DNA from: a virus
IMG/VR virus record: IMGVR_UViG_3300049043_000133
Coordinates: 28,659 to 92,658 of that record
DNA length: 64,000 nt
Direction: 5' to 3' (one strand)
The translations under genes and the position numbers were made by a program. Each line of letters opens with the position of its first letter. The first letter of the stretch is position 1. Under the pieces are notes generated by a model that did not search any database, had not been told where the DNA came from, and worked only from the letters and a program-made list of their open reading frames with translations. Shown here in pieces: positions 18,349-52,941 of the stretch.

Positions 18349-18400
18349 TTGACAGGATTTCCTGACAATGCTATGATAAATAAATCTTAAGAAATGTAAC
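18349..18400 (+). promoter_or_regulatory. psbA promoter (TTGACA-17-TATGAT, overlapping ATAAATA) with reverse HLR1-like box
   Basis: TTGACA 18349-18354, TATGAT 18372-18377; minus strand GTTACATT-TC-TTAAGATT 18400-18383. Confidence 0.7.
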
Positions 18401-18410
18401 GTTTCTTAAT

Positions 18411-18500
18411 CCTCTACCTAACCGAGACCTATGGGGAGGTTAAACACAGTCTCTCATATCCACAGTGGAGGGTGCTGTGGAGTATAATGTATTACCAGTT
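18411..18500 (+). ncRNA. PhotoRC-II-like cis-regulatory RNA in the psbA leader
   Basis: AACCGAGAC...GTCTCTCATATC and CCACAG-TGGAGGGTG-CTGTGG stems directly upstream of psbA; boundaries approximate. Confidence 0.65.
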
Positions 18501-18532: not shown

Positions 18533-21398
<2,866 letters not shown>

Positions 21399-23643: not shown

Positions 23644-23970
23644 ATGGGCAAGCATTATCTACTTAACTTATATGGATGTTCATTCGTTCTTTTAAATGAC
23701 GAACGATGTCTTGTAGATTTATTAGAAAATGCAGCAGTTGCATCGGGCGCAACTGTAGTTCAAACAATTTGGAAGAAGTTTGAACCACAAGGAGTTACTG
23801 TAATGTGTCTATTGTCGGAAAGTCATATTAGCATTCATACTTGGCCTGAAGAAGGGAAAGCAGCCGTAGATGTTTATACTTGCGGAGACTGTAATCCAAA
23901 GATTGGATGTGATATAATTATTCAACAACTTTATGCATCCAGCCATACATTAAGTTATATCGAGCGTTGA
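23644..23970 (+). CDS. speD: S-adenosylmethionine decarboxylase proenzyme
   Basis: FEPQGVT, LSESHISIHTWPE cleavage motif, DVYTCG. Confidence 0.93.
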   Translation: MGKHYLLNLYGCSFVLLNDERCLVDLLENAAVASGATVVQTIWKKFEPQGVTVMCLLSESHISIHTWPEEGKAAVDVYTCGDCNPKIGCDIIIQQLYASSHTLSYIER

Positions 23971-23976
23971 TATAAT

Positions 23977-24029
23977 TGTATCAGGAAATACACACAAACT
24001 TGACTATATAGAATGACTAGGGGTATAAT
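23977..24029 (+). promoter_or_regulatory. NtcA-type box plus sigma70 promoter
   Basis: TGTA-TCAGGAAA-TACA 23977-23992; TTGACT 24000-24005, 18 nt, TATAAT 24024-24029. Confidence 0.65.
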
Positions 24030-24039
24030 AATCCCCTAA

Positions 24040-24294
24040 CGTTCATCCTATGACTAAAGCACTTTTGCTTTTGGCATGGGTTCCACTTCTTTCTTTTTCT
24101 ACGCCGCAACTTACCAAACTTAATAATCAAGTGACGATAAGTTGTGATGTAGCTTGGGAACTAATGGACATCGTTAAAAACGACGATGTAGTAGATCAAA
24201 GAAGAGAAGACCGATTGCTATTAGAACTCCGAAAGGATGTTATAAAACTTAAGTGCTAAAACTGAATAGGACGGAAGTAAGCCGACTCGGAACG
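24040..24294 (+). ncRNA. glutamine-riboswitch-type aptamer 1 (Downstream-peptide/glnA family), P2 loop occupied by an ORF
   Basis: CGTTCA-TCCTAT 24040-24051 ... ATAGGA-CGGAAGTAAGCCGACTCG-GAACG 24266-24294. Confidence 0.6.
24050..24259 (+). CDS. 69-aa protein with signal-peptide-like N-terminus, nested in aptamer 1
   Basis: MTKALLLLAWVPLLSFS...ISCD...LKC. Confidence 0.6.
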   Translation: MTKALLLLAWVPLLSFSTPQLTKLNNQVTISCDVAWELMDIVKNDDVVDQRREDRLLLELRKDVIKLKC

Positions 24295-24297
24295 GAT

Positions 24298-24348
24298 CGT
24301 TCATTCGCTATTTGCAAATAGCGAACGCAAAAGTTGACTGAAGGAACG
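24298..24348 (+). ncRNA. glutamine-riboswitch-type aptamer 2 (Downstream-peptide family)
   Basis: CGTTCA-TTCGCTATTT-GC-AAATAGCGAA-CGCAAAAGTTGACTGAAG-GAACG; directly upstream of a YRG peptide gene. Confidence 0.75.
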
Positions 24349-24383
24349 CCACCTCACCCTAAACAAGTAAAGGAGCAAACCGA

Positions 24384-24515
24384 ATGACAACAGCAACGTA
24401 TCGTGGTGTTAAATATAACGTCGAAGATCGTAAAATCAACGTTCTTCAACTTATCAAAGATCAAATTGAAAAAGAACAACGTCGTAAAGCGGCACAACTA
24501 GCATCACTTAGATGA
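24384..24515 (+). CDS. DUF4278-like 'downstream peptide' (43 aa, not in ORF track)
   Basis: AAGGAG RBS; MTTATYRGVKYNVEDRKINVLQLIKDQIEKEQRRKAAQLASLR with YRG motif. Confidence 0.75.
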   Translation: MTTATYRGVKYNVEDRKINVLQLIKDQIEKEQRRKAAQLASLR

Positions 24516-24520
24516 TACTT

Positions 24521-24549
24521 AGAGAGGGACTTGACTCCCTCTCTTTTTT
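24521..24549 (+). terminator. rho-independent terminator overlapping the next promoter
   Basis: AGAGAGGGA-CTTGAC-TCCCTCTCT plus T run; TTGACT 24531 and TATAAT 24553. Confidence 0.8.
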
Positions 24550-24581
24550 GTCTATAATTACCTTTGTTGAGGTTGATAAAA

Positions 24582-28565: not shown

Positions 28566-28907
28566 GTTTTTTTAAATCTGAAGTCGTCCGTGCTGAGATG
28601 GCAGAAATTAGTGAATTGCAAGAGGACGTTTATCAAAATGTCTTTAAGTTCTCCACGATGTCAAAAGAAGAACAACTTAATCATGTAAAAACTCTTGAAA
28701 AACTTCTTGAAAAACAAAAAGTTCTTTACACCAGATTAAGTTTATCTGATGATCCTGAAGCAGTTGCAATGAAAGAAAAAATTTCTGAATCTGCACTCAA
28801 TGATGGGACTTCCCCAAAATGTGGATATGAATGTTATTTTTAATAATATGTCAAGAATGTTGGATATTATGAAAGAACAAATTGACAAGACAGGTTCCGA
28901 CCTGTAG
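28562..28907 (+). CDS. DUF1825-like protein; frameshift near 28800
   Basis: MSFFKSEVVRAEM, EKQKVLYTRLSLSDDPEA. Confidence 0.7.
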
Positions 28908-52659: not shown

Positions 52660-52941
52660 GCGAGTATGGCGAAATCGGTAGACGCACCAGACTTATGAAA
52701 ATTGAACTCATTTAGGAAACTTTATGAGTGCAAATTCCTCAAATTCGGTGAAACCTGTAAAATGGCAATACCGAGCCAAGCATCGCAAGATGAAGGTGCT
52801 AGAGACTAGACGGGGAACACCTAAACTGAAAGGTATGGTGAAGGTATAGTCCAGACCACAAACTGAAAAGGTAGTGAAAACTATAGTGGTAAGAAAATCT
52901 GTTGGGGGCAACCCGTCGGGAGTTCAAGTCTCCCTACCGCA
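52660..52941 (+). tRNA. trnL: tRNA-Leu(UAA), exons 52660-52694 and 52894-52941
   Basis: GCGAGTA..TGGCGAAATCGGTAGACGC D arm; spliced anticodon arm CAGA-CTTAAAA-TCTG; long variable arm; GGGAGTTCAAGTCTCCC T arm. Confidence 0.9.
52695..52893 (+). mobile_element. group I intron (IC3-type, 199 nt, no ORF) after U34 of the anticodon
   Basis: P AAATTCGGTGAAAC, Q GGCAATACCGAGCC, R AGAGACTAGACGG, S GAAGGTATAGTCC; follows U, ends in G. Confidence 0.9.

Follow-up and report, generated by a model that had tools for sequence, protein, structure and literature searches.

In a T4-like cyanophage sequence, comparison with related phages confirmed that positions 24040-24294 correspond to aptamer 1 of a glutamine riboswitch of the glnA type with two sensors in tandem; judged by its sequence, this aptamer is split by a gene for a 69-amino-acid protein. 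All positions refer to the window, i.e. the whole stretch of 64,000 nucleotides that was analysed (IMG/VR virus record IMGVR_UViG_3300049043_000133, a viral contig of 92.7 kb, positions 28,659 to 92,658), in which the gene speD ends at 23970. According to the explanation we favour, to which we assign a probability of about 0.6, the stretched P2 helix of an intact aptamer 1 encloses a functional gene for a two-cysteine protein, and folding and translation compete on one RNA. The same estimate covers the proposal that the region from around 24037 to 24515 would form one small operon, headed by the tandem riboswitch, in which aptamer 1 is followed directly by aptamer 2 and then by a single gene (Table 1).

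Table 1. Features of the putative riboswitch operon and its upstream region, in window coordinates.
Feature	Position	Strand	Basis and remarks
NtcA-type box GTA-N8-TAC	23978..23991	+	directly 3' of TATAAT 23971-23976 (with upstream TG)
Sigma-70-like promoter: TTGACT, 18-nt spacer, TATAAT	24000..24029	+	11/12 matches; predicted start near 24036-24039
Inverted repeat TAGGGG / 9-nt loop / CCCCTA around the -10 hexamer	24018..24038	+	ends 1 nt before the aptamer
Aptamer 1, 5' half: P1 5' strand CGTTC, A, P2 5' strand TCCTAT	24040..24051	+	sequence, family loci, HMM
Nested gene for a helical 69-aa protein with a hydrophobic N-terminus and cysteines at 32 and 69	24050..24259	+	program ORF list
Aptamer 1, 3' half: P2 3' strand ATAGGA, junction CGGAAGTAAGCCGACTC, P1 3' strand GGAACG	24266..24294	+	
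Aptamer 2, compact glutamine aptamer	24296..24352	+	Rfam RF01739, 36.7 bits (cut-off 35)
Shine-Dalgarno-like AAGGAG of the downstream gene	24370..24375	+	read from the sequence
Downstream 43-aa gene, YRG motif, IF17/DUF4278-like N-terminus	24384..24515	+	
Terminator-like hairpin closing the small operon	24521..24544	+	sequence prediction

The coordinates that the initial annotation had given for the split aptamer were all found to be correct when the sequence was read again. P1 consists of CGTTC (24040-24044) and GAACG (24290-24294), P2 of TCCTAT (24046-24051) and ATAGGA (24266-24271), and the junction CGGAAGTA (24272-24279) is identical to the consensus junction of the Rfam family RF01739. 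The tip of P2 is replaced by an insert of around 214 nt, and the aptamer spans 255 nt. As had been proposed, the nested ATG overlaps the 5' strand of P2, with the A and the T being common to both, and the stop codon TAA (24257-24259) lies just before the 3' strand, 6 nt ahead of ATAGGA. Both helices are present in the minimum-energy fold of 24037-24296 calculated with ViennaRNA; P1 has a pairing probability of 0.69-0.80 in the isolated aptamer, and the value for P2 is 0.44 compared to 0.40 with a shuffled interior, which is no excess.

The central idea of the initial annotation, a gene located inside the P2 loop of a glutamine-type aptamer, is supported by compact orthologues, by an HMM score and by the retention of both aptamer halves in homologues. 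S-PM2 and S-CREM1 possess two compact aptamers, 3 nt apart, at the corresponding position before one small gene, and the first of these is composed of CGTTCA, a short hairpin and then CGCAAGTAAGCCGACTCGGAACG; the GenBank record of S-CREM1 annotates a glnA riboswitch feature. Since these phages carry a compact aptamer at this place, the halves found in the window correspond to aptamer 1 with around 214 nt added at the tip of the hairpin. The compact aptamer 1 of DSL-LC02 has a 3' half identical to that of the window and reaches 35.6 bits with RF01739 (cut-off 35), and the compact copies of S-PM2 and S-CREM1 stay below this cut-off with 24.4 and 20.4 bits, respectively. As these other compact copies reach only 20-24 bits with Rfam, aptamer 1 is best described as a shortened variant of the glutamine class. 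In a compact orthologue, Infernal aligns AG-CCGA-CU as a P3 of 2 bp and deletes part of GAAG. The 3' half of aptamer 1 together with the start of aptamer 2 shows 94-100% identity to around 20 cyanophage records.

A chance match as the origin of the two halves was considered and rejected: a single copy of the 15-nt core CGSAAGTAAGCCGAC is present in the window, compared to an expectation of 0.02, and the window construct from which the loop had been deleted scored 39.9 bits against an HMM built from 46 compact aptamer-1 sequences, whereas the best of 2000 shuffles reached 5.6 bits (nhmmer); the 46 compact copies themselves score between 24.8 and 50.4 bits with this HMM. When the intact split region was searched using cmscan of Infernal with E-values of up to 10, only aptamer 2 was reported, and the split form was missed, as expected with an insert of 214 nt. 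The glutamine-II model (Downstream-peptide, RF01704) gave no match in the window at its cut-off of 33 bits, and the compact aptamer 1 of S-PM2 reaches 24.6 bits with it. The other Rfam matches above cut-off in the window, located at 18397-18495, 20744-20954 and 52684-52875, are a PhotoRC-II RNA and two group I introns.

The split layout recurs in other phages. A scan of IMG/VR with the tandem junction motif yielded at least 120 stretches, from which 121 junction sites were parsed. In 62 of the at least 120 stretches, i.e. in about half, at least one aptamer is confidently split: only the second in 20, only the first in 13 and both in 14, with the other aptamer unparsed in 15. Both aptamers are compact in 33 stretches, and the remainder is partly unparsed. 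An ATG is found 3-7 nt after CGTTCA in each of the 92 parsed split aptamers, and in all 92 it opens an ORF of 49-69 amino acids that fills the loop. Inserts of aptamer 1 end mostly in GGA CGC AAG TAA and those of aptamer 2 mostly at the TGA of GACTGAAGGAACG; because the inserts mostly end at a fixed codon of the core, their stop codons are at the same time conserved core nucleotides. The ORF of the window stops earlier than the other inserts, right after its second cysteine, with the frame unchanged.

Examples among named phages include P-SSM4, in which both aptamers are split and the nested genes are annotated as PSSM4_169.2 and 169.3 (T4-GC 429 and 430), S-SSM7, whose second aptamer is split by an annotated ORF, and DSL-LC02, whose second aptamer is split by an annotated 50-aa gene. 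In the marine virus AG-345-E15, it is the first aptamer that is split; this genome also carries a manA RNA (L004:1452-1653, RF01745, 162 bits) around 200 nt downstream of the riboswitch operon. The second aptamer of P-SSM2 (AY939844.2; L206:652-790) encloses a 49-codon ORF beginning with MDILLATILTCEEAK, which is absent from the GenBank annotation.

That homologues keep both halves of the aptamer had been set as a test beforehand, and this was the case in all 78 parsed loci encoding the ORF family of the window (80 were fetched): each of these preserves CGTTCATCCTATG on the 5' side and, on the 3' side, ATAGGA together with the core, so that this ORF family was always found inside an aptamer. 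In these loci, 2-14 nt separate the stop codon from the core, and the spacer that links the stop to ATAGGA differs in both sequence and length. The second aptamer of the loci of this family is split in 48 cases and compact in 23, the window belonging to the latter. When a sister protein family was used alone as the query, 79 of 80 loci were located inside an aptamer. On these counts, the split layout is widespread, present in hundreds of related phages and not unique to the phage described here. In contigs of cellular genomes, nearly all of the listed matches to the 15-base junction motif were chance matches. Only one among the matches listed, L398, has an aptamer core upstream; its module, with both aptamers split and an NtcA-type box, lies in a bin of 1.1 Mb, and the sequence is probably a phage contig that was binned with a cell genome.

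Split and compact copies have a common consensus of the 3' core. Pair 1 of P2 is U-A in every split aptamer, and pairs 2 and 3 are always paired, with C-G in 34-40 of the unique split copies, which number 37 for aptamer 1 and 42 for aptamer 2. Other positions vary: pair 5 of P2 in aptamer 2 is TA in 14, AT in 13, CG in nine and TG in four copies, and it is paired in 40 of 42 copies, compared to a mean of 20 and a maximum of 29 in shuffles; pair 4 in aptamer 1 is paired in 23 of 37 copies, compared to a shuffle mean of 13.8 and a maximum of 21. The covariation that was to be tested for in the TCCTAT/ATAGGA stem is seen across the insert in the sister families, but the ORF family of the window yields none because its P2 never varies. 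In this family, constraint on the RNA is indicated by ATAGGA itself, which is mostly non-coding and nevertheless invariant beside a variable spacer. Furthermore, when native split aptamers are folded in isolation, P2 has pairing probabilities of 0.66 and 0.64, compared to 0.17 and 0.19 when the interior is replaced by dinucleotide-shuffled sequence; in 43 of 44 and 47 of 50 comparisons, native pairing was higher than that of the corresponding shuffles. By these pairing statistics, closure of the RNA is under selection in split aptamers.

Relatives of the nested protein of the window form 248 clusters, the best 120 of which have 77-100% identity. The ORFs of split aptamers show dN/dS values of 0.12-0.38, and the third codon position is the most variable one, with entropies of 13.7, 8.6 and 43.5 at codon positions 1, 2 and 3 of the largest group; by these measures, the nested ORFs are real genes under purifying selection. 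Inserts of aptamer 1 match phrog_6471 and inserts of aptamer 2 match phrog_504, whereas the window ORF has no PHROG match at E <= 0.01, and Pfam contains no family for any of the three nested protein families. All three follow a common plan, consisting of a hydrophobic N-terminus and two invariant cysteines 34-37 residues apart. Comparison of profiles relates the phrog_6471 type to the phrog_504 type (probability 79%, E 1.5e-5), and it links the family of the window only weakly to these two sister families (probability 1% and 17%). AlphaFold predicts the window protein with low confidence (pLDDT 58) and the phrog_6471 type with a pLDDT of 83 as a helical hairpin, in which the two cysteine regions are brought together. 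A PDB sequence search with the sister families A2 (the phrog_6471 type) and A3 gave no match, and a Foldseek search of the A2 model against the PDB gave no significant fold match; in the ESM Atlas, the nested protein is matched best (0.92) by a viral cluster that carries no name and may be its own.

The promoter that lies closest to the aptamer (24000-24029) has the same layout in relatives and predicts a transcription start a few bases from CGTTCA, in agreement with the description of the nested ORF as nearly leaderless in the initial annotation. However, around 55 nt further upstream lies another potential promoter, which has an NtcA-type box and would give a longer leader, and this description would therefore hold for only one of the two potential starts. 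GTA-N8-TAC is found 53-70 nt (mostly 62 nt) ahead of CGTTCA in 44 of 46 distinct loci of the window ORF family, and marine tandem loci contain 75 such boxes at -53 to -62 over 98 distinct upstream regions, compared to one in 98 for controls. This positional conservation suggests that the riboswitch operon is under the control of NtcA. For Prochlorococcus, an IF17-like gene with an NtcA site over its start has been reported (PMC6212724).

Of 97 related loci, 95 have an inverted repeat of 5 bp or more (mostly 6-8 bp) upstream of the aptamer, in 74 of these 95 at a distance of no more than 4 nt, and it also occurs in loci of the window ORF family. The sequences of its arms differ between loci, for instance ATGTGTT/AACACAT, GGGTATG/CATACCT and ATGTCATG/CATGACAT. 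If the repeat acts as RNA, transcription has to start further upstream, and a transcript starting at the upstream -10 hexamer (23971-23976) would have a leader of around 55 nt that contains the hairpin.

The protein encoded downstream of aptamer 2 has a weak match to DUF4278 (E 0.057) and matches to phrog_545 and phrog_5049. Its YRG-motif N-terminus is joined to a C-terminal part starting with INVLQLIK; in another locus (L138:1063-1298), a part of this type is encoded as a separate 33-aa ORF after a 45-aa YRG peptide. The nested ATG of the window lacks a Shine-Dalgarno sequence. At 24521-24558, the terminator-like hairpin overlaps the sigma-70-like promoter that comes next, whose -35 hexamer TTGACT lies inside the loop of the hairpin.

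How such an arrangement could operate follows from its geometry; we infer ligand binding, burial of the AUG, blocking by ribosomes, the direction of control and the transcription start. At low glutamine levels, the 5' half of aptamer 1 would stay open and the nested gene would be translated. This half would be made around 215 nt before its partner, and ribosomes could therefore load first. Closed P1 and P2 helices would hide the AUG, and a translating or terminating ribosome would melt P2 and cover the core. As the fold would hide the AUG and a ribosome must melt P2, the folded and the translated state would be mutually exclusive. At high glutamine levels, the aptamers would lock shut, thereby repressing the nested gene, and the downstream IF17-like peptide would be produced. 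Glutamine turns expression on in reporters of Synechocystis and Prochlorococcus (PMC6212724). That known glutamine switches activate the gene downstream suggests that this gene and the nested one are controlled in opposite directions, and, by analogy, glutamine probably represses the nested gene while switching on the downstream one. It is tempting to speculate that one riboswitch has two opposite outputs, the nested two-cysteine protein at low and an IF17-like inhibitor of glutamine synthetase at high glutamine levels, layered on promoter control by NtcA; we regard this fuller scheme as possible, at somewhat less than even odds. If it is true, host nitrogen status would be read at two levels, with a choice between two sets of small effectors.

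The junction between the two aptamers, GAACG-GAU-CGUUC (24290-24302), is self-complementary. A rather unlikely alternative to two aptamers folding side by side is a cross-paired fold, in which CGUUC of each aptamer pairs with GAACG of the other, the two inner strands doing so over the 3-nt junction. This fold is the unconstrained energy minimum of 24038-24352 with -82.2 kcal/mol, 3.2 kcal/mol below the -79.0 kcal/mol of the side-by-side arrangement; however, energy models leave out tertiary contacts and the ligand, each aptamer on its own matches the single-aptamer model of Rfam, and 24-43 nt separate the two aptamers in the loci L157 and L138. Sequence comparison cannot choose between the folds because both P1 helices have the same invariant sequence. 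The cross-paired form may be the sensing fold or a ligand-free alternative, and the nested gene would be enclosed either way.

An enclosed gene need not be a regulated one. It could be a passenger cassette that settled in an insertion-tolerant loop of an aptamer serving the downstream gene only, with no meaningful control of the nested gene by glutamine. Close relatives differ in having the compact or the split form, and they do so at either aptamer position. Furthermore, ORFs of the phrog_6471 type, which usually reside in aptamer 1, are also found in aptamer 2 (loci L106, L044, L025 and L116), and their C-terminal tail follows the hosting core, being GRK in aptamer 1 and DAKAD in aptamer 2 (L106 and L044). 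The swap of the tail to DAKAD implies that the residues after the second cysteine are imposed by the RNA, and the pattern as a whole suggests exchange of cassettes between the two aptamers, for which the conserved aptamer halves could serve as recombination sites. However, tolerance of an insert would require neither a start codon that always lies in P2 beside P1 nor a stop at a fixed codon of the core, and the interiors of split aptamers are selected to let P2 close. In addition, no mobility gene and no Pfam domain were found in the cassettes, and the geometry makes folding and translation exclusive, whatever the origin of the insert. We therefore consider a mere passenger unlikely.

It is very improbable that the insertion destroyed sensing by aptamer 1 and that its 5' half was kept only as a translation start region and its 3' half as a part of the platform of aptamer 2. 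The lack of an Infernal match to the split form and a P3 region shorter than the Rfam consensus would fit such a dead aptamer, but the core nucleotides of split copies all match the compact consensus, P2 covaries across the insert, the mostly non-coding ATAGGA is invariant beside its variable spacer, and closure is under selection. The idea that the insert is a non-coding extension of the RNA with an accidental ORF, which draws on the prediction of the interior as a long irregular hairpin and on the missing Shine-Dalgarno sequence, was rejected on the basis of the dN/dS values, the variable third codon position, a frame that stays open in each of the 92 split aptamers parsed, which encode three divergent protein families, invariant cysteines and the confident protein model of a sister family (pLDDT 83).

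With the enclosed, translated gene as the preferred reading, the closest known relatives of the element are the type 1 glutamine riboswitches. The glnA RNA motif (type 1, RF01739) was first described in PMC2864571, and one example is the leader of gifB (IF17) in Synechocystis (PMC6212724). The window element resembles this class in the P1 helix CGUUC/GAACG, the conserved base of P2 and the CGGAAGUA junction, and, like the gifB leader, it precedes a small DUF4278/IF17-like gene; the NtcA-type box at its promoter has a counterpart in that reported for the IF17-like gene of Prochlorococcus. It differs from type 1 riboswitches in that its P2 encloses a gene of 69 codons, extending the aptamer to 255 nt compared to around 55 nt, in its shortened P3 and in being borne by a phage; moreover, two outputs instead of a single one would be expected of the RNA. 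Tandem glutamine riboswitches in compact form are also known, with 157 doublets counted (PMC9481103), and S-PM2 and S-CREM1 carry direct compact orthologues of this kind, with two aptamers 3 nt apart and one small gene. Those tandems were described as side-by-side and gene-free, whereas about half of the sampled cyanophage loci hold a gene in one or both sensors. In the literature searched on glutamine aptamers, their tandem forms and phage copies, we found no account of a riboswitch aptamer that contains a gene. As Infernal and Rfam scans miss split aptamers, riboswitch counts in cyanophages are too low, and nested genes such as that of P-SSM2 have been left unannotated by standard scans.

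In attenuators of the trpL type, translation of an embedded ORF encoding a leader peptide competes with alternative RNA folds. To our knowledge, leader ORFs of the mgtL and trpL type have no role as proteins. They are short sensors of translation speed and lie in the expression platform, unlike the window ORF, which is a conserved protein gene inside an aptamer helix. The likeness lies in the competition: translation of mgtL, the ORF embedded in the Mg2+-sensing leader of Salmonella mgtA, also competes with alternative folds (PMC6460261). If glutamine controls the nested gene, the phage element would be a compact two-output switch and a new form of crosstalk between translation and ligand sensing.

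Homing-endonuclease genes sit in loops of group I introns. As in these introns and in HEARO RNAs (PMC2864571), the gene described here lies within a loop that varies in an otherwise conserved RNA, and only some relatives have it. Unlike in those cases, searches of Pfam, PDB sequences and folds revealed no endonuclease or mobility domain, the RNA that hosts the gene senses a metabolite, and conserved parts of this RNA provide the start and the stop of the gene. The layout is present in cultured phages such as P-SSM4, which makes direct testing possible, and it points to how cyanophages read host nitrogen status. Riboswitches have been regarded as leaders that gate a downstream gene, whereas in these phages the ligand-binding fold itself appears to wrap around a gene.
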